Positions 11,894 through 53,171 of a stretch of 64,000 nucleotides of DNA are shown in pieces. Each line of letters begins with the position of its first letter. The stretch's first letter is position 1. A program made the position numbers and the translations under genes. Source of the stretch: Syntrophomonadaceae bacterium (GTDB lineage: Bacteria; Bacillota; Dethiobacteria; DTU022); the NCBI GenBank assembly GCA_003554615.1, contig PWGX01000003.1, positions 2,894 to 66,893 on the forward strand. The letters are read 5' to 3'. The notes beneath the pieces are model-generated. The model saw only the letters and a program-made list of their open reading frames with translations, was not told where the DNA came from and made no database searches.

Positions 11894-12051
11894 CAACTTT
11901 AGATTTTAATCACTAATTCTTAGCCCGTGATCGTAATTAATCGTGCTGCATTTAACCCGATTATCCAATATTCATCTGCCAGTTATACCTCAACCTTAAC
12001 CGGGTAAAAAACTGCATAAAACAATAAAACATTTTTCCTGCACATTTAAAA

Positions 12052-12083
12052 GGGCTGCCTCATCGCCACCTTTGGGGCAGCCC
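12052..12083 (+). terminator. possible terminator hairpin
   Basis: Stem GGGCTGCC / GGCAGCCC with a 16-nt loop, followed by CGTTTCTTTC. The T-tract is weak. Confidence 0.35.
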
Positions 12084-12105
12084 CGTTTCTTTCATAAGTG
12101 AGGCT

Positions 12106-12190
12106 CCGGGTTGTCATTCTAAAGGGTTAATCCTTATTTTACTCTTTTTTCACCTTGCTTCCATGCTTATTAGCGATTTCAATTTAAAAA
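12106..12190 (+). repeat. conserved intergenic element, copy upstream of bamB
   Basis: It shares GTTA(A/G)(T/C)CC..ATTT(T/C)A..TTTT(C/A)ACCTTG-N-TTCCATGCTT...AG(C/G)GATTT with 35201-35290 and 49172-49250, all in the same orientation. Confidence 0.7.
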
Positions 12191-12472
12191 CTGTTCTTGT
12201 AAAGTAAGGTTAAATAGAGAAAATAAGGGGTTATATTATACAATCACCAATATTGACCGCATTTCGCAATTCGTCCGGCCACAGCATTTTTTGTTGCATA
12301 ATTGATTGTTTCAGTGTTCACGGCAAATAAAACAGGCCGGGCAAAACCTTTTATAACCGGGCCAGGCAAAATAACCCGGAAGAACAGTATTTTGACAGCG
12401 CCCGGGCATTAATGCATTGCTCTGTTTTCAAAAAGCACGTTTAGAGCAAAAAATAGCTAAGAGGTGTAAAAA

Positions 12473-19388: not shown

Positions 19389-20156
19389 ATGAGTGATAAA
19401 CATACATTCAAACCGAAAGTGGTCGGCTTCGTATGCCAGTGGTGAGGATATGGAGCTGCGGACTTGGCTGGAGTTTCCAGGCTACAATACACAACTGAAA
19501 TCAGGCTCATTCGGGTCATGTGCAGCGGACGGGTCGATCTGGCCCATCTGTTCAGAGCTTTTTCAAACGGAATGGACGGGGTTTTGATCGGCGGGTGCCG
19601 GCTGAAAGAATGCAACTACATTACCCACGGAAATTACCATGTCCTGAACCTGGTCCTTTTGAGCAGGAGAATTATGAAATACATCGGCCTGAACCCCGAC
19701 CGGTTAAGGATTGAGTTTATGTCATCAGGAGAGGGGAACCTTTTTGCAAAAGTTGTCGATGATTTTGTCGCCACGGTCAGGGAAGCGGGTCCGCTCGGCA
19801 TCAGCGAAGGACTTAACCCCGAAACCCTGCGCCTAAATTTAAAAGCTGTTTACAAGCTCATTCCTTATTTCAGGCTGGTGGAAAGCGAAAGGTTGAGGGG
19901 CCATTTTGAAACCCGGGAGCAGTTTGAAGCATTCTATGCCGGCGAAGAATTTGAACGGCTTTTTAAAGAGTTGATCGCCGACAAGTTGGCCATCAGCCAG
20001 ATCATAGCCTTGCTGCAGAAAAAACCGCTTTCGACCGGGGAAATATCGGAAGTGCTTGGTCTGTCGCCCTCCGACATATCCAAACACCTGAACAATTCCG
20101 CCAGGCAGGGGCTGGTCAGATATGAGGAAGAGGAAAAACGCTTTGCCCTGGCTTAA
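19389..20156 (+). CDS. bamF: BamF, MvhD-like subunit with in-frame UGA = selenocysteine and a C-terminal wHTH-like extension
   Basis: The ATG at 19389 has GGGAGGTG 7 nt upstream. The reading is MSDKHTFKPKVVGFVCQW-U-GYGAADLAGVSRLQY, in frame with listed ORF 19464..20156. MvhD-type proteins have C(N/Q)WC here. TGA is at 19443-19445. Confidence 0.85.
19443..19482 (+). promoter_or_regulatory. UGA recoding site plus candidate SECIS hairpin in bamF
   Basis: A hairpin CUGGA[GUU]UCCAG lies at 19468-19480, extendable with flanking G/C. It starts about 22 nt after the UGA. Confidence 0.45.
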
Positions 20157-32538: not shown

Positions 32539-33273
32539 CTAGTTGTTGCCTGTATTGTCGTCGTTGAAATCACTTGGAACCGGTTTTTCTATAATAAACA
32601 GGCTGTCTTCGCTGTTCCTGCTCAATTTTACAGCCATTGATATAGCCTGGGTCCGGTTTTTGACCTGGAGTTTACGGTAAATATTGCGCAGGTGGGTTTT
32701 TACTGTATCAACCGCCAGGTTTGTTGCGGAGGAAATTTCTTTGTTGGTCAAACCCCGCACCAGGTGCCTTAAAATTTCCTGCTCCCGGGGAGTTAATTCG
32801 ACTGGCTCTTCTTCTTTTTTTAGCGGCTTTATTTCTGTATGCTTTTTACTCAGGCGGGTGTAATCACTAACAATTTGCCTGAAGACAGACTGATCAATAA
32901 TGGTTTCTCCGCCGTGCACCCTTTTAATGGTGTCAATCAAGTTCTGCCGGCTCACATGCTTAAGAATATAACCGGAAGCGCCGGCCTGCAAGGCCAGGCG
33001 GATCGATTCTGTATCTTCAAAGACAGTTAAAAAGATAATCTTAATACCCGGTTTTTGAGCCAGGATCTCCCTGGCCGACTCAATTCCGTTCACACCCTCC
33101 ATTTTTATATCCATCAGGATAACATCCGGATCGAGCGAATGGGCTTTTTCCAGGGCCTCTTTGCTGTCTTCGCAGCTTCCGGCCACAATAATCTCTTCAC
33201 TGTTGTCAAGCATGTTGGTTAAACCTTCTCTGACCATGGGATGGTCATCGACAATGAGTATGCTTATGGTCAA
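32539..33273 (-). CDS. NarL/LuxR-family response regulator (REC + HTH)
   Basis: ILIVDDHPMVREG...DVILMDIKM is the REC domain. LTPREQEILRHLVRGLTNKEIS is the LuxR-type HTH. It overlaps the kinase gene by 4 nt. Confidence 0.85.
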   Translation of the reverse strand: MTISILIVDDHPMVREGLTNMLDNSEEIIVAGSCEDSKEALEKAHSLDPDVILMDIKMEGVNGIESAREILAQKPGIKIIFLTVFEDTESIRLALQAGASGYILKHVSRQNLIDTIKRVHGGETIIDQSVFRQIVSDYTRLSKKHTEIKPLKKEEEPVELTPREQEILRHLVRGLTNKEISSATNLAVDTVKTHLRNIYRKLQVKNRTQAISMAVKLSRNSEDSLFIIEKPVPSDFNDDNTGNN

Positions 33274-34985
33274 TTTTCTTGCTCCTCTCCGGATGATGTT
33301 TTAGAGGGAATACTGACTTTAATTTTCGTGCCTTTGCCAGGTTGGGAATCAATTTTGCAATCTCCCTCCAGCAGCAGAGCCCGTTCCTGGATCCCGGCCA
33401 AGCCCAAACGATGCATGGGCTGGCTTTGATTATAGTTATTTTTAGTGATGCCAAATCCGTTGTCCTCGACAATCAGGCCCACATTTTCATCTTCAATATT
33501 AAGGCTGACCCTGACATTGGTAGCTCCAGCATGCTTGACTACGTTTGTCAGGGCTTCCTGCAGGATCCTGAACAAGGCCACCTCAGTTTTTGAATCCAAC
33601 CTCTGTTTTTCACCGGAGATTTCCAGTTCAATGGGCAGATCGTATTTCTCAATTATGCTGTTTACATGAGCCTCAACAGCCGGAATCAGGCCGTAATTAT
33701 CCAAAATAATGGGACGTAGATCATATAAGATCCGCCTGATCTCCTGGATCTGTTCATTTAGAACCCCCGTCAATTCCATTATCTCGCTATGCCAATTTTC
33801 CGGTTCCATCCCTTCAGATGAAGAAAGGCGCTGGAGGCGATACCAGATTGCGATCAGGGACTGGATTATTCCATCATGCAGGTCGGCGGCAATTATTTTA
33901 CGTTCATCCTCCTGGGCGGTAATCAACTTGTTGACCAGCTGGTGCAAAAGCTGTTCCTTTTGCCCGAGCATATCGATCAACCTGGCGTTTTCTATGGCAA
34001 CGGCAGTAGCCCGGGCAATGGCAAAAATAATTTCTACTTCTTCGCTGTCAAAGCCTTCCGCCTCCGGGGGGCGGTCAACCTGCATAATGCCAATGGTTTT
34101 ACCCTTACTCATAATAGGGGCCAGCACGACCCATCCATAATTAAAATCTTCCACAATTTCCCTTGTCATCATTTTTTCACTGTTCCGGGGTGTTACCACC
34201 ACCGGCTCTTTGGCATTGATTGCTTTTTTTATGGCCGGAAATGCCTTCCTACCTTTGAGAGCCTTAAATTTCCTTTTTAAAACCGGGTCGTAACTGCCCA
34301 CCGCCACAGTGGGGATAAGAGTCTGATCCTCATCTTGGAGGAGGTAAATACAGCTCTTGGATGAAAATAGATCGGCAGTTAGCTGGGCCACAACATGAAG
34401 AACCTGCCTGATATCCAGGGTAGAACTGATCGTATTAACCATTTCCAGCCACACGGAAAGTTTCCTAAGGTGACGGTCTTTCTGCCTCTGGAAAAGGGAT
34501 TCCTGGATAATATCGGCCATATGCCTCCCCAGGGAAGCAGCCTTGGCCAGCATGTATTCCCCAGTTTGGTAGTCGGTATTAAATATGCCGATTTCCATCA
34601 TTCCCACCGGGTCCCCGGCTTTTAAAAATACCGGCAAATTAGTGGATATAACCGGCGAAAGAAGATCGAGCAGCTTTTTATTGCGCCTGTTTTCGGGGTC
34701 GGAAAGATAGTTGTTTAACTGGACACAGCGTTCCGGGTGGACGGCAACGCCGCTTCCATGATTTTTCTTTTCCTTGGAGGCATGCCAGCAAACAGGCACT
34801 TTTCCATCACGAAGAAGCATTAATGTAGCCCGGCAAAAATCAAAATTATCTACTGAAGCCTGCAAGGTACCCTGCAGGGAGGAATCCACCTGCTCAATCG
34901 AATCGAAATTAGGACTGACACGGCAGATGAGGATTAACTCCGGTTTATCCTTATACTCTCCTGCATGCCTGTTTTCACCTGTCAA
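33270..34985 (-). CDS. cytoplasmic sensor histidine kinase with GAF domains (HisKA_3/NarX type)
   Basis: 571 aa with no TM helices. It has GAF-like regions, then the H-box AADLHDGIIQSL and HATPase_c (VEDNGFGI, GLAGIQERA). Confidence 0.8.
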   Translation of the reverse strand: MTGENRHAGEYKDKPELILICRVSPNFDSIEQVDSSLQGTLQASVDNFDFCRATLMLLRDGKVPVCWHASKEKKNHGSGVAVHPERCVQLNNYLSDPENRRNKKLLDLLSPVISTNLPVFLKAGDPVGMMEIGIFNTDYQTGEYMLAKAASLGRHMADIIQESLFQRQKDRHLRKLSVWLEMVNTISSTLDIRQVLHVVAQLTADLFSSKSCIYLLQDEDQTLIPTVAVGSYDPVLKRKFKALKGRKAFPAIKKAINAKEPVVVTPRNSEKMMTREIVEDFNYGWVVLAPIMSKGKTIGIMQVDRPPEAEGFDSEEVEIIFAIARATAVAIENARLIDMLGQKEQLLHQLVNKLITAQEDERKIIAADLHDGIIQSLIAIWYRLQRLSSSEGMEPENWHSEIMELTGVLNEQIQEIRRILYDLRPIILDNYGLIPAVEAHVNSIIEKYDLPIELEISGEKQRLDSKTEVALFRILQEALTNVVKHAGATNVRVSLNIEDENVGLIVEDNGFGITKNNYNQSQPMHRLGLAGIQERALLLEGDCKIDSQPGKGTKIKVSIPSKTSSGEEQEN

Positions 34986-35200
34986 GTGTACACCGCCTTT
35001 AATAGGGACCGGTTGTATAAATAATAAAGTTCATACCATACATACATTCATTATATGCCAGTATAAAACCTGCCATTTCGCTCTAATCTTTAGAATTAAC
35101 CTGCTCCTTTCACTGCCTGCCGGAAATCTGCGAAGGAAACTTTAAAAATTTCATTAAACTGTTTTTTTAATTTTATCTTTTCCTTTTTATGCAGTCAACA

Positions 35201-35290
35201 CAGGGCTTCACTTAGGGGTTCATCCTTAGGGGTTAGCCCCGATTTCATACTTTTTAACCTTGTTTCCATGCTTTTTAGGGATTTTTTTAG
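35201..35290 (+). repeat. conserved intergenic element, copy upstream of the SDR-thiolase-dehydratase-ior operon
   Basis: It has the same core as 12106-12190 and 49172-49250. This copy carries an internal duplication of CTTAGGGGTT. Confidence 0.7.
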
Positions 35291-35428
35291 TACTTGTTTT
35301 TATTTAAACTTAAATAAAGTGCCAATAGTATAAACAAATTTACTGCAACCTTTTCATTCAGTGGCAAAGCAGGAATATTTTAAATCAAAAACTGTACAGC
35401 CGATTATCAGCAGGAGGTGTTTAATTAC

Positions 35429-47575: not shown

Positions 47576-47872
47576 TAAATTCCCACTCCTAATTAAAATT
47601 TTAAATCGATAAATACAGCAAAATGTATGAAAAATCTCTATCGTATATTAATATTTTCTATTCTTCATTATTAAACTTATCCCTTCCCTGTAGGCCCCTA
47701 AAGGCGGTGGTAACCCATTTATCACACTCTAATCAAAAAAATACCTCTTTTAGGTGATAGAAATATGCGCCCAAATTTAATAACATTAAATTTATAAGAA
47801 GAATTTTTTATCTTCCCTTGATATTGTATTTTCAAAAAACAGGCCGTGCTACCCTGAGGAGGAATTGACTTG

Positions 47873-49168
47873 ATGACTTTTTTTGATGAAAAATGGGAAA
47901 CCATGTCCCGGGATGAAATGCAGGAAGTCCAGTTTGAAAAGTTTAAAAAACAGGCCCACCAGGTGTATAAAAATCCCTTTATAAAAAGCCGGTTTGATGA
48001 AAAAGGTCTTCAGCCCGGAGATATTAAAAGCTGGAACGACATTAAAGAGGTCCCATTCATGTCTAAAAACGACTTGAGGGACAACTACCCCACCGGGCTG
48101 ATATCCGGCAACTGGGAAGATGTGGTTCGGGTCCATATGACTTCAGGAACTACCGGTGTGCCTACACCCATGCCTTACAGTCAAAACGACCTCGACATCT
48201 GGACCGCCTGTATGGCCCGCAATTTTACCGCCGGAGGGCTAAAAAAAAGCGATATCATTCAGCAGTCTCACGGCTACGGCCTGTTTACAGGGGGATTTGG
48301 TTTTCATTACGGCCTGGAAACCGTCGGGGCAAAAATTATCCCTACCGGGGCCGGCGGCACAGAAAGACAGCTTCGCTTGATGAAGGAATGGGGAACTACC
48401 GTTTTTACCGGCACCCCCTCTTATGCTGTTTATATTGCGGAATTTGCCGCTGAAAAAGGAATCGACCCGGTAAAAGACCTAAAACTGCGCCTCGGCTTTC
48501 ACGGCGGTGAACCCTGTTCGGATGAATTAAGAGAAAGAATTAATGAACGCCTCGGCTATAAAGCACACGGTGGCGGGATGAGGCGCTGTTACGGGCTTAC
48601 AGAAATGGGCGGGCCAATTGCCATGGATTGCGAGCATGAATGTGGAATTCATATCTGGGGCGATCATTATCTGGTTGAAATCCTGGATCCTGAAACCATG
48701 GAACCGGCTAAAAAAGGAGAACCGGGTGAACTGGTGATCAGCAACCTCAGCTTCGAAGTAATGCCGTTACTACGCTATCGCACCGGGGATCATGTTATAG
48801 CCAGTTTTGAGGAATGCGCATGCAGCCGGACCCATCCCCGCATTACCACTTTCCTGGGCCGGCTCGACGACATGATCCTGGTCGGGGGCACCAATATCTT
48901 CCCCTGCCAGGTGGAATACATTCTGCTAAATCACGCTGAGCTGAGCGAAAACTGGCAGATCGTGGTAGGAGAGAAAAAAGGCCTCCATACCATGAAAATT
49001 GAAATCGAACCGGCCACCTGGACGGATGTTGATGAACATTTTATCGAAGCACTTGAAAAAGAACTTCATCAGCATCTGGCCAAGAAATGTGAAATCGAAA
49101 TAAAACCGATCGGCAGCCTGCCTCGTTTTGAAGGAAAAGCTGTCCGGGTTATAGATCATAGGATTTAA
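47873..49168 (+). CDS. paaK: phenylacetate-CoA ligase family (PaaK/F390 synthetase-like)
   Basis: About 431 aa. The N-terminus (W..MSRDEMQEVQFEKFKKQ...VPFMSKNDLRDNYP) and the motif MTSGTTGVPT are typical of PaaK. Confidence 0.8.
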   Translation: MTFFDEKWETMSRDEMQEVQFEKFKKQAHQVYKNPFIKSRFDEKGLQPGDIKSWNDIKEVPFMSKNDLRDNYPTGLISGNWEDVVRVHMTSGTTGVPTPMPYSQNDLDIWTACMARNFTAGGLKKSDIIQQSHGYGLFTGGFGFHYGLETVGAKIIPTGAGGTERQLRLMKEWGTTVFTGTPSYAVYIAEFAAEKGIDPVKDLKLRLGFHGGEPCSDELRERINERLGYKAHGGGMRRCYGLTEMGGPIAMDCEHECGIHIWGDHYLVEILDPETMEPAKKGEPGELVISNLSFEVMPLLRYRTGDHVIASFEECACSRTHPRITTFLGRLDDMILVGGTNIFPCQVEYILLNHAELSENWQIVVGEKKGLHTMKIEIEPATWTDVDEHFIEALEKELHQHLAKKCEIEIKPIGSLPRFEGKAVRVIDHRI

Positions 49169-49171
49169 TTT

Positions 49172-49250
49172 CAGGGTCTTCAACCGAAGGTGTTAGCCCT
49201 GATTTCACCCTATTTTAACCTTGATTCCATGCTTTTAAGGGATTTTTTTA
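49172..49250 (+). repeat. conserved intergenic element, copy upstream of the DUF35-oah-dch-had operon
   Basis: It starts 4 nt after the paaK stop and has the same core and orientation as the copies at 12106 and 35201. Confidence 0.7.
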
Positions 49251-49474
49251 ACAATTATCTTTCATTAAGCTTAAGGGGAAGGCTAAAAAGGGAAAACACA
49301 AGAGCAGCCGCTGTATTTCAATCTAAACAAACACAATTTCAGTATTTATTATCGATCCACCCGGCCAGTGATGAGCAGGCGGAAACTATACCACAATATA
49401 TATCGGTCCCAGCGCCAAGTCAATAATTTAAGCACGGCAAAGCGGGCAGTTAGTTGCCGGAGGAGGTAAGCAAA

Positions 49475-49888
49475 ATGGGCTTTGAACGTTTTGGAAGGTT
49501 GAGTTTTACATCGCAGACAAAAACAAACGATTTTATCGATTACCTGGAAAAAGGAGATCTTTATGCCACCCGGTGCGAACCGTGTGGTGTCACCTTCTTC
49601 CCACCGCGGGCAGATTGCTGCTCCTGCCTGGAAAATGATCTGGAGTGGGTCAAAATTAACCCGAAGGGCAAATTGATCAGTTTCACCAGGTCATACTTTG
49701 CTCCAACCGGATTTGAAGAAGACGTCCCTTACGTCCTGGCCGTAGCGGAATTTAACGGGACTAAGGTATTTGGCCGGGTCAGGAAAGGATTTACCGAAAA
49801 AGATTTATCGGCCGGGATGGAGATAACAGTAAAACCTATTACTTACCAGGACGGGCAAATCAGTTATGAGTTTGAACCGGTAGCTTAG
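49475..49888 (+). CDS. DUF35 Zn-ribbon/OB-fold protein (BbsA-like thiolase partner)
   Basis: The rubredoxin-like CEPCGVTFFPPRADCCSC is followed by an OB fold. The ATG follows GGAGGAGG. Confidence 0.75.
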   Translation: MGFERFGRLSFTSQTKTNDFIDYLEKGDLYATRCEPCGVTFFPPRADCCSCLENDLEWVKINPKGKLISFTRSYFAPTGFEEDVPYVLAVAEFNGTKVFGRVRKGFTEKDLSAGMEITVKPITYQDGQISYEFEPVA

Positions 49889-50038
49889 GTAACCGGCCTT
49901 TTTGCTGATCTGAAAAATTTTATTTAAAAGGGCATGCCGTCAGTTAGGGGGTGAACAAACAGACTGGCTATTATAACCCGGCACCAAAACCGGGACAAAT
50001 CCAAAGGGAATTAATAATATTTTAGAAGGAGGATTAGC

Positions 50039-51169
50039 ATGGATCTTAACAAGTGGCCTCGCCAGGGAGGCATAGTCGATCACCAGCTTTATGGCGACGA
50101 TTATTTTGGGACGGAGCCTCCCTGTGTCATGTACGAAAAGAAACCGGTTCTGGATTCAGAAGGCAAAGAAGTCGATGGCCTGTATACAGCCTGGGTAACT
50201 TTAAACAATCCCAAACAGCTCAACTCCTATACCACCAACATGGTTAAAGGAGTAATTGCAGGAATGCACAAAGCTTCTATGGACCGTTCCGTGGTGGCCG
50301 TAATCTTTACCGGAGCTGAAGACAGGGCTTTCTGCACCGGCGGCAATACCAAGGAGTACGCCGAATACTACAGCGGCAACCCCAGCGAATACGGCGCCTA
50401 CATGGACCTTTTTAACGGAATGGTCGATTCCATCTTAATGTGTAAAAAACCGGTCATCTGCCGCGTAAACGGAATGCGGGTAGCCGGGGGGCAGGAAATA
50501 GGAATGGCCTGCGATATTACCATTTCTTCCGACCTGGCCATGTTCGGACAGGCCGGCCCCAGGCACGGTTCCGCCCCGGTAGGCGGCTCCACTGACTTTC
50601 TGCCCGTGTACCTGACCATGGAACAGGCCATGTGGAGCTGTATATCCTGTGAGCTGTGGAGTTCCTACAAGATGCTGTACTTAGGTTTAATCTCCAAGGT
50701 AGCCCCGGTCCTTAAAGTAAACGGCGAATTCGTTCGCAACCCCCTGGTTATCACCGACAAATATGTTGAAAACGGAGAAATTGTATACGGGGAACCGGCC
50801 AAACGCGAACAAAAAGACAAGGGCAAAGAAATGCTAAAGTCCGGTGAAACAGACTTCACCCTGCTGGACCAGGAAATTAATAAAGTAGTCTGGACGCTGA
50901 GCAACCTCTTCCCCAACTGCCTGATGATGTCCATTGACGGAATCCGGCAGAAGAAGAAGTTCTTCTGGGATCAGGCCAAGCTTCCCAGCCGCCACTGGCT
51001 GGCTGCCAACATGCAGACTGAAGCATACCTCGGCTTCAATGCCTTCAACACCAAGAAGCTCACCGGTCAGGATACGATCGATTTTATCAAGTACCGTCAG
51101 CTGCTTGCAGAAGCCCATCCTTTCGACCAGGATCTGGTCGATGCGGTAATGGGGGAAAAGCAGGAATAA
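50039..51169 (+). CDS. bamA: 6-oxocyclohex-1-ene-1-carbonyl-CoA hydrolase (ring-opening crotonase)
   Basis: 376-aa long-form crotonase. It contains QLNSYTT and GGQEIGMACD blocks, which I recall as the conserved regions of BamA/Oah. It is adjacent to the dch- and had-like genes. Confidence 0.75.
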   Translation: MDLNKWPRQGGIVDHQLYGDDYFGTEPPCVMYEKKPVLDSEGKEVDGLYTAWVTLNNPKQLNSYTTNMVKGVIAGMHKASMDRSVVAVIFTGAEDRAFCTGGNTKEYAEYYSGNPSEYGAYMDLFNGMVDSILMCKKPVICRVNGMRVAGGQEIGMACDITISSDLAMFGQAGPRHGSAPVGGSTDFLPVYLTMEQAMWSCISCELWSSYKMLYLGLISKVAPVLKVNGEFVRNPLVITDKYVENGEIVYGEPAKREQKDKGKEMLKSGETDFTLLDQEINKVVWTLSNLFPNCLMMSIDGIRQKKKFFWDQAKLPSRHWLAANMQTEAYLGFNAFNTKKLTGQDTIDFIKYRQLLAEAHPFDQDLVDAVMGEKQE

Positions 51170-51314
51170 AAGCCTGCTCAGTTTAAATTAACTGATTACT
51201 GTAAACTAAAAGGTGTTCCCGGAGACAGCGACATTACCATACAACTGCAGCCATGCCCGGGAACACCGCTCCTCCTTGCTCAAGCCTGCGGGAGGCAAAA
51301 AGAGGTGAATTATT

Positions 51315-52079
51315 TTGGCTTATAACTATCTCAATACCACAAGCGAAGACGGAGTTGCCACCATAACTCTTAACCATCCTCCACTTAATGTGTTGAATAT
51401 AGAAATGATGGAGGAATTAATCCAGGCCTTGCATTGGGCCGGTGAACAACCCAACCCCGTCGTAGCAATCACAGGCGAAGGAAAAGCTTTTTCCGCCGGT
51501 GTGGATATAGCCGATCACACCCCGGAAAAAGTCGATTCTATGATCGATGTTTTTGACCGCCTTTTCTTTGCCATGTCTGAAATTAACCAGCCGATCGCCG
51601 CCCTGGTTAACGGAGCGGCACTGGGGGGAGGGTACGAAATTGTTTTATTCTGCGACCTGGTAGTGGCTTCAGAAAAAGCCAAGCTGGGTCAACCGGAAAT
51701 ACAGGTGGGTGTTTTCCCACCGATCGCCTGTTATATACTGCCCAGGCTTGTATCGTGGCCGCTGGCCATGGAAATTCTGTTGAGCGGTGATACATTCGAG
51801 GCAGCAAGAGGAGAGCAAATGGGCCTGGTGAACAAAATAATCTCCGCTGAAAACTTCCAGGTCGAAGCCAAGGACTTTCTTAAACGCTTTACCAAGTTGA
51901 GCCCGGCAGTGCTGGCCCTGACCAAAAAAGCCGCCCTGGCCGGACTGGGTGAAGATTTAAAGGAAGGGCTTAAAGTCATAGACCGGATCTACCTCGACGA
52001 AGTCATGAAAACAGAAGATGCCGTTGAAGGGCTGCAGGCATTCATGGATAAACGCAAACCGGTCTGGAAAGGAAAATAA
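51315..52079 (+). CDS. dch: enoyl-CoA hydratase (candidate cyclohexa-1,5-diene-1-carbonyl-CoA hydratase)
   Basis: 254-aa crotonase (GEGKAFSAGVDI, NGAALGGGYEI). The specific function is assigned from context only. Confidence 0.6.
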   Translation: MAYNYLNTTSEDGVATITLNHPPLNVLNIEMMEELIQALHWAGEQPNPVVAITGEGKAFSAGVDIADHTPEKVDSMIDVFDRLFFAMSEINQPIAALVNGAALGGGYEIVLFCDLVVASEKAKLGQPEIQVGVFPPIACYILPRLVSWPLAMEILLSGDTFEAARGEQMGLVNKIISAENFQVEAKDFLKRFTKLSPAVLALTKKAALAGLGEDLKEGLKVIDRIYLDEVMKTEDAVEGLQAFMDKRKPVWKGK

Positions 52080-52103
52080 TTATGCCAAAGGAGGTTTTAC
52101 CTC

Positions 52104-53171
52104 ATGAGCGTACCGGCAAAAATTGAAACCTGGCAGATGAAAGAACCCGGAACCCTGGAAAAAACCACCATTGATGTGCCGGAACTGCAACCCGGGGAAG
52201 TCCTGGTGGAAATTGCCGGGTGCGGAGTTTGCCATACTGATGTCGGTTATTTTTATGACGGGGTCCCCACTGTCAACGATCCTCCGCTGACCCTGGGTCA
52301 TGAAATCAGCGGAAAAGTCGTTGCCGGTGATGAACACTTAATCGGAAAAGAAGTAATTATCCCGGCGGTTATGCCCTGCAACAAGTGCGATATCTGTGCT
52401 GCAGGCAGGAACAATCGCTGCCTGAAGCAAAAAATGCCCGGCAACAGTATGGGTATCTACGGAGGCTTTTCCAGCCACATCCCGGTCCCATCAGAAGATT
52501 TGTGTGTGGTTGAAGACCGCAAAGGAATGCCCATGGAATACCTTTCGGTTGTAGCCGATGCGATCACATCGCCTTACCAGGCTGCAAAAAGAGCCGATAT
52601 TCAACCAGGAGACAGGGTGGTCATTATCGGGGCCACAGGGGGAATCGGTGTTTACATGACCCAGATTGCCGCCGCCCTGGGAGCTGAAACCGTAATAGCC
52701 ATTGCCAGGAGCAAGGAAAAACTTGAACGCTCCTTAGACTATGGAGCCACCCATACCATCAGCACCCTGGACCAGGGAGTAAAGGATATCAAGAATTCCT
52801 ACAAGGGCTACTGCAAGGAAAACGGCCTGCCCGGGCACGGATGGAAAATATTCGAGTGTTCCGGTTCCAAAATAGGCCAGGAAATCGGCCTCGAATTGCT
52901 TTCTTTTGTCGGAAAGCTCATAGTTGTCGGTTTTGGAATGCACAAGGTAGAATATATGCTTTCCCGGCTGATGGCTTTCGATGCGGAAATTATTGGAACC
53001 TGGGGCTGCCTGCCCCGCTATTACAAGGAAGTTTTGCAGATGATCCTCGATAATAAGATCAAGATTGAACCATTTGTAGAAGTGCGGCCTATGAGCCAGA
53101 TTGAAAAATCGTTTGAAGAATCACATGCCGGAAAGCTGATGAAAAGGGTCATTTTACAGCCTGATTTCTAA
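52104..53171 (+). CDS. had: Zn-dependent alcohol dehydrogenase (candidate 6-hydroxycyclohex-1-ene-1-carbonyl-CoA dehydrogenase)
   Basis: 355-aa MDR family protein (GCGVCHTD, GHEISG, GATGGIG). The specific function is assigned from context only. Confidence 0.6.
   Translation: MSVPAKIETWQMKEPGTLEKTTIDVPELQPGEVLVEIAGCGVCHTDVGYFYDGVPTVNDPPLTLGHEISGKVVAGDEHLIGKEVIIPAVMPCNKCDICAAGRNNRCLKQKMPGNSMGIYGGFSSHIPVPSEDLCVVEDRKGMPMEYLSVVADAITSPYQAAKRADIQPGDRVVIIGATGGIGVYMTQIAAALGAETVIAIARSKEKLERSLDYGATHTISTLDQGVKDIKNSYKGYCKENGLPGHGWKIFECSGSKIGQEIGLELLSFVGKLIVVGFGMHKVEYMLSRLMAFDAEIIGTWGCLPRYYKEVLQMILDNKIKIEPFVEVRPMSQIEKSFEESHAGKLMKRVILQPDF

Follow-up and report, generated by a model that had tools for sequence, protein, structure and literature searches.

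Pairs of a sensor kinase and a NarL/FixJ-type response regulator control aromatic catabolic promoters: TodS/TodT acts at PtodX, StyS/StyR at PstyA, and TdiS/TdiR is a further pair. These systems are proteobacterial, their hosts are aerobic or denitrifying, and their kinases are large and carry PAS domains. For the anaerobic degradation of benzoyl-CoA the known regulators include BadR/BadM, BzdR and, in Geobacter, BamVW together with sigma-54. They come from the MarR, Rrf2, XRE-shikimate-kinase-like and NtrC (with sigma-54) families. The position of NarL-type sites relative to the promoter has been described in E. coli. At ogt, NarL sites lie at -44.5 and -77.5 (PMC7419079), and yeaR carries a 7-2-7 NarL site at -43.5 (PMC10853779).

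The DNA analysed here, which we call the window, is a stretch of 64,000 nucleotides from a Syntrophomonadaceae bacterium. A repeat search of the window finds three direct copies of an intergenic element on the forward strand, at 12105-12179, 35210-35284 and 49171-49245 (copies 1, 2 and 3). An HMM built from the three copies recovers them in an assembly-wide nhmmer search with E values of 1e-22 to 1e-25. The next match has an E value of 0.8. The source assembly comprises 0.98 Mb in 56 contigs and is rated 71% complete; its relatives measure 1.8-2.5 Mb. Three is a lower bound for the copy number in this assembly, and near-complete relatives likewise carry three.

Our starting point was copy 3. 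An initial annotation had placed its beginning 4 nt past the stop of paaK and named copy 2 as its closest match. Both statements hold. The paaK-like reading frame ends at 49168 and the element was taken to start at 49172; identity over the conserved ~97 nt is 79% with copy 2 and 70% with copy 1. The repeated element itself is real as well, but the limits given for it (49172-49250) are not those of the conserved sequence. Our alignment comprises 60 instances, drawn from two GTDB families and, beyond these, from more distant Bacillota MAGs. In this alignment the real unit of copy 3 is 49175-49271, with conservation running from 49175/49176 to the hexamer at 49266-49271. The unit is a conserved block of 75 bp, followed by an unconserved 20-nt spacer of fixed length and a TAnnnT hexamer. 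The block keeps a constant length until ~49249. Then conservation drops for ~10 nt and resumes as yTTT..T-TAAnnT.

We consider it very probable that 49175-49271 is a promoter/operator module that acts at the level of DNA. Such a ~100-bp element is an ordinary kind of regulatory DNA and leaves the understanding of promoters unchanged. The features discussed below are collected in Table 1.

Table 1. Positions of the module copies, their parts and neighbouring features in the window.
Feature	Position	Strand	Description	Basis
Canonical intrinsic terminator of the PEBP-family gene	12050-12100	+	11-bp G+C-rich stem, -22.3 kcal/mol, T-rich tail; just upstream of copy 1, outside the module	
Copy 1 module	12109-12205	+	Upstream of bamB-like class II benzoyl-CoA reductase genes; hexamer TAAAGT at 12200-12205	
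Candidate regulator pair	32539-34985	-	GAF-HisKA_3 histidine kinase (33270-34985) and NarL/VraR-type response regulator (32539-33273); divergent from copy 2	Pfam
Predicted promoter of the kinase/regulator operon	35170-35198	-	Near-consensus sigma-A, TTGACT-17-TAAAAT	Read from sequence
Copy 2 module	35215-35310	+	Upstream of SDR/thiolase/aryl-acid operon; hexamer TAAACT at 35305-35310	
PaaK-like aryl-acid CoA ligase gene	47870-49168	+	Stop 7 nt before the conserved block	Pfam AMP-binding and AMP-binding_C_2
Copy-3 hairpin	49172-49201	+	CAGGG (49172-49176), 20 nt, CCCTG (49197-49201); -13.5 kcal/mol with inner pairs	
Putative conserved upstream activator region	49175-49249	+	About -103 to -29 from the inferred start	Per-column information content, 30 and 60 instances
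Putative distal palindrome-like box	49189-49200	+	Consensus rGGTTAACCy, here imperfect GGTGTTAGCCCT; centre ~-83.5	PWM self-comparison
Putative proximal 7-2-7-like inverted repeat	49228-49243	+	CATGCTT-TT-AAGGGAT; centre -42.5	Top inverted-repeat score, PWM self-comparison
Would-be -35 hexamer site	49243-49248	+	17-bp spacer; TTTTTT, no match to TTGACA	
Inferred -10 hexamer	49266-49271	+	TAAGCT; TAnnnT at this place in 60/60 instances	
Inferred transcription start	49277-49279	+	6-8 nt past the hexamer	Standard sigma-70/sigma-A geometry
5' UTR, ~197 nt (inferred start)	49278-49474	+	Poorly conserved between genomes; GGAGGAGG at 49459-49466	
Copy-3 operon: DUF35 (ATG 49475), oah, dch, had	49475-53171	+	Further genes downstream	Pfam

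The module is shared with relatives. Searched with up to three mismatches, its 33-nt core is present in 14 out of 73 family genomes and, in the order as a whole, in 26 out of 115, with one to three copies each. The reversed control pattern has no hit in the same genome searches. The genomes that bear the element are uncultured 'Syntrophomonadaceae'/Bacillota MAGs, many of them with sample names that refer to soda-lake sediment. Throughout the two families and the more distant MAGs, every instance stands in sense orientation upstream of bamB (type 1), of an SDR operon (type 2) or of DUF35/oah/dch-had (type 3). The SDR operon is always divergent from a gene pair for a GAF-HisKA_3 kinase and a NarL-type regulator. 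Distant MAGs in which the regulator is only 55-69% identical keep the module adjoining the kinase gene.

A multi-copy intergenic sequence of ~100 bp can also belong to a REP- or MITE-like family, either dispersed repeats or small mobile elements, and have no regulatory role. For this element such an origin is extremely improbable. There are only three copies, they occupy orthologous positions in one orientation across two families, and they show neither terminal inverted repeats nor target duplications. Moreover, the type-specific variants of the module are inherited vertically.

In the window, copy 1 precedes a gene for a bamB-like tungsten aldehyde:ferredoxin oxidoreductase and the rest of the class II benzoyl-CoA reductase cluster. 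The BamF-like protein of this cluster (19464-20156, forward strand) joins an FlpD/VhuD-type domain (residues 1-110) to a C-terminal ArsR/SmtB-type HTH (residues 179-224). Such a fusion of a DNA-binding domain with an electron-transfer subunit is unusual, and the protein could be a second, redox-linked regulator. Copy 2 precedes an operon for an SDR, a thiolase, an amidohydrolase, a 2-hydroxyacyl-CoA dehydratase and IorAB. In the copy-3 operon, Oah matches TIGR03200 with 560 bits and Had matches TIGR03201 with 483 bits, both above the cut-offs. The PaaK-like ligase upstream reaches 350-394 bits with the NCBIfam PaaK models, below their cut-offs. The start of DUF35 is most likely the ATG at 49475, 8 nt past GGAGGAGG, rather than the TTG at 49454 chosen by the ORF finder. 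This ATG and the MGFERFGR that follows it are conserved in eight orthologues.

The hexamer at the end of the module suggests a class of promoter. Positions -12, -11 and -7 define the -10 element of sigma-70/sigma-A promoters. All 60 instances have T at -12, A at -11 and T at -7. The hexamer lies 20 nt from the core GATTT in 56 instances and 19 nt from it in the remaining 4. It reads TAAGCT, TAAAGT or TAAACT within the source genus, TAAAAT in the second family (f5) and TATAAT, TATACT or TATATT in distant relatives. A -35 hexamer (TTGACA) would be expected 16-18 bp upstream. At a 17-bp spacer none of the 53 counted instances has a hexamer like TTGACA, and 26 of them have TTTTTT. A missing -35 hexamer is typical of activator-dependent promoters.

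The promoter predicted for the kinase/regulator operon (35170-35198) shows the form that an activator-independent promoter takes in this lineage. Its two near-consensus hexamers imply that the lineage uses ordinary sigma-A promoters, so the module would be a promoter without a -35 box. A GTCAA(C/T) block is kept upstream of type-2 copies. Copy 2 and the kinase/regulator promoter stand back-to-back, and the distal box of copy 2 lies ~70 bp upstream of the inferred start of that promoter. With this spacing, autoregulation of the kinase/regulator operon is conceivable.

Three other promoter assignments were rejected. Reading both strands of the core, we found no GG-N10-GC in the register of a sigma-54 promoter (GG at -24 and GC at -12, TGGCAC-N5-TTGC). 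In the same reading, neither strand has an ECF-type motif in register. Other sigma-70 placements, with the core TTGATT as a -35 box or TGC-TTTTAA as an extended -10 element, pair hexamers that are not conserved across the instances.

Where the -35 box would be, the module carries the proximal box. Here, positions are counted with the first T of the hexamer as -12. The box has the consensus CATGCTT-TT-AAGCGAT, contains the palindrome GCTTTTAAGC, and is the most invariant stretch of all 60 instances. In copy 3 of the source genome it is only a loose palindrome (CATGCTT/AAGGGAT). In five genomes, matches to the box with at most one mismatch are confined to the three modules of each genome, and at two mismatches the hits are about as frequent as for the reversed control. 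Given the inferred -10 hexamer, the dyad overlaps the -35 region with its centre at -42.5, inside the range of about -41 to -45 expected for NarL/LuxR-type promoters. In the distal box, relatives carry a perfect palindrome, GGGGTTAACCCC or GGATTAATCC. A self-comparison of the information-weighted profile also gives direct TTAACCnTnnTTyCA repeats at a distance of 21-22 bp. Since the conserved sequence may be read as several overlapping repeats, the binding sites named here are putative in their exact position.

The initial annotation had also seen a hairpin in copy 3. It proposed that CAGGG-(20 nt)-CCCTG, followed by a T-rich tract, acts as a terminator or attenuator between paaK and the DUF35-oah-dch-had genes, and that the element is a terminator-plus-promoter/operator cassette. 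The inverted repeat is present at 49172-49201 exactly as described. The T-rich tract is another matter: the sequence after the stem is AUUUCACCCUAUUUU, with no U-run directly past the stem. Intrinsic terminators combine a stable G+C-rich stem, a short loop and an immediate U-run, and the copy-3 hairpin, which has the tail AUUUCACCC in place of a U-run, lacks this combination. A terminator scan of 49100-49500 finds no site, and the fold of 101 nt has a z-score of -0.83.

The hairpin is also poorly kept among relatives. Most of the 5' arm of the stem falls outside the conserved block. In the 60 instances, the stem together with an inner CTTC/GAAG stem has 48.1% standard pairs vs 48.5% in shuffled columns. 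The observed pairing is equalled or exceeded in 330 of 500 shuffles, and covariation is the same as in the shuffles. The strength of the hairpin does not depend on the upstream gene, with a mean of -7.8 kcal/mol after a co-directional gene vs -8.1 kcal/mol after the divergent kinase gene. In copy 1 the equivalent segment folds at only -4.5 kcal/mol.

A terminator or attenuator at this place is thus unsupported. Of the proposed cassette, the promoter/operator part stands and the terminator part does not; where termination is needed, at copy 1, a separate terminator of -22.3 kcal/mol lies outside the element. One can still imagine a dual element, with a hairpin that stops or attenuates transcription of paaK and a promoter/operator in its 3' part. 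In copy 3 the hairpin reaches -13.5 kcal/mol, its position immediately after the paaK stop would suit this role, and the scan detects no other terminator between paaK and DUF35. Set against the missing U-run, the shuffled-level pairing, the weak fold of copy 1 and the equal stability after co-directional and divergent genes, these points leave the dual element very unlikely. Because the stem is not conserved and the tests for terminators and structured RNAs are null, the hairpin would be a local accident, a by-product of two predicted binding boxes that are partly complementary by chance.

Alternatively, the element could act as an RNA: a cis-regulatory leader, a riboswitch-like element or a small RNA that starts upstream. 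Strong sequence conservation, long 5' UTRs downstream and a strand-specific orientation would all agree with such a role. However, structured cis-regulatory RNAs are recognised by a conserved structure with covariation or by a match to a curated model, and the element has neither. RNAalifold returns an empty consensus structure for both strands, and Rfam has no match at the gathering score or at E<=1. Furthermore, only ~15-25 bp separate type-2 elements from the -35 box of the divergent promoter, so that a forward promoter upstream of the element would find no conserved space, and a TATAAT-like hexamer follows the element at a fixed distance. The long 5' UTR of copy 3 holds no conserved feature either; eight aligned orthologous regions show only patchy similarity among close kin, and Rfam has no match to this UTR at E<=1.

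The core does contain an ATG, in CCATGC (49229), which we considered as the start of a leader peptide and rejected. It has no Shine-Dalgarno sequence, and it is lost in three distant versions of the element (L070, L073 and L074). The lengths of the reading frames that follow are unrelated (14, 21 and ~66 codons in copies 1, 2 and 3). We hold an action as RNA to be highly improbable. The ~66-codon frame (49229-49430, forward strand) exists in copy 3 only, has no ribosome-binding site, is not conserved and is probably meaningless.

If the module is an operator, a protein has to read it. The kinase/regulator pair beside copy 2 is the only dedicated regulator found adjoining the module. Its response regulator consists of Response_reg and GerE domains, and the nearest solved structures are those of VraR and then NarL. 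The kinase has no transmembrane or other hydrophobic segment and should therefore sense a cytoplasmic ligand. The synteny of the pair is kept in every type-2 instance, so that a linked cognate GerE-type response regulator, as expected for promoters of the NarL/LuxR type, is found in all lineages. Close to copy 1 there is no other regulator; the conserved gene upstream of it encodes a PEBP-family protein.

Of the 14 family genomes with the element, 12 encode a regulator orthologue of at least 76% identity; none of the 59 that lack the element does so. In the first exception, G004, the type-2 copy lies at a contig end. The second exception is G010, a genome of the same genus that is 96% complete, in which kinase, regulator and type-2 copy are not detectable. 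Here the synteny of paaK-DUF35-oah-dch is kept (L142, G010:C111:6500-11000), and the 140-nt spacer between paaK and DUF35 has no trace of the module. The type-1 copy upstream of bamB is retained. This copy is a counter-example: either the pair may be unassembled in G010, or another factor may act on the module. Besides, element, regulator and pathway genes travel in one cluster. Hence their co-occurrence is not independent evidence that the regulator binds the element.

Both points bear on the most serious alternative, in which the module is a promoter/operator with a different reader: a repressor, the ArsR-type HTH on the BamF-like protein, or a global regulator. The type-1 copy of G010 appears to do without the pair, physical linkage confounds the co-occurrence, the bam operon encodes an FlpD protein with a C-terminal ArsR-type HTH, and a repressor that covers the -35 region is compatible with the sequence. 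Yet the kinase/regulator pair is the sole dedicated neighbour and is divergent from the type-2 copy in all lineages. Activation by a dimer of a GerE-type HTH protein would agree with both the absent -35 box and the dyad at -42.5. In G010 the type-2 and type-3 copies were lost together with the pair. We regard a different reader as rather unlikely. That the adjacent NarL/VraR-type response regulator is the activator of the module seems reasonably likely.

The role that the initial annotation gave to the element, a promoter/operator that co-regulates pathway modules, is borne out by the -10 hexamer at a fixed distance, the strict sense orientation at three operon types, the three-member regulon and the linked regulator. 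Taken as a whole, the following statement is likely to be correct: the module is an activator-dependent sigma-A promoter, lacks a -35 box and is read by the adjacent response regulator. We observe the repeat itself, how it is conserved and oriented, which genes surround it, and that it has no conserved RNA structure. From these we infer where transcription starts, that the module is activated and not repressed, which protein regulates it and what the signal is.

The mechanism we propose would begin with an intracellular aromatic acid or aryl-CoA thioester. In its presence the soluble GAF kinase would phosphorylate the response regulator. Dimers of the regulator would then bind the box at -42.5 and the distal box, about four helical turns upstream, and would bring RNA polymerase to a promoter whose sole core element is the -10 hexamer. 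At copy 3, TAAGCT (49266-49271) would serve as this -10 element, and transcription of DUF35-oah-dch-had would start near 49278. Copies 1, 2 and 3 would be induced together and form a small three-operon regulon for the degradation of benzoyl-CoA. Transcription of paaK probably continues into DUF35-oah-dch-had, to which copy 3, as an internal promoter, would add inducible expression.

For the anaerobic degradation of aromatic compounds in an uncultured lineage of soda-lake Firmicutes, the analysis thus defines a three-promoter regulon and names a candidate pair of sensor and regulator. In the literature we found no description of a regulator of the Bam-type pathway in such Firmicutes. On balance we lean towards the view that the module and the GAF-HisKA_3/NarL-type pair are the first described switch for a Bam-type reductase and its lower pathway in Gram-positive anaerobes. 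The GAF domain would sense an intracellular aryl-CoA or aromatic acid, and a single portable 100-bp cassette would serve three operons and have been kept through the history of the order. The motif offers a way to recognise pathway operons when MAGs are annotated, and the kinase might find use as a sensor of aromatic compounds.

How does this candidate switch compare with the described systems? With the NarL promoters of E. coli it shares a NarL-family regulator, a HisKA_3-type kinase and an inverted repeat with a 2-bp spacer at about -42.5, and a second module site follows 35-41 bp upstream. Unlike there, the half-site (CATGCTT/AAGCGAT) is unrelated to the NarL heptamer TACYYMT and the host is a Firmicute. 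The kinase is a soluble GAF protein rather than a periplasmic nitrate sensor, the regulon consists of three aromatic-catabolic operons, and both binding and the start site are predictions here. As in the Tod, Sty and Tdi systems, a dedicated kinase and a GerE-type regulator are encoded beside the pathway genes, and the promoters have multiple boxes and a poor -35 region. In contrast to those systems, the hosts here are strict anaerobes, the targets are the operons of the class II benzoyl-CoA reductase and of the lower pathway, and three promoters share a single module. Finally, the switch resembles BadR/BadM, BzdR and BamVW in that its control would be specific to the pathway and include both benzoyl-CoA reductase and ring-cleavage genes. 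It differs from them in the family of its regulator and in having no sigma-54 -24/-12 motif on either strand.
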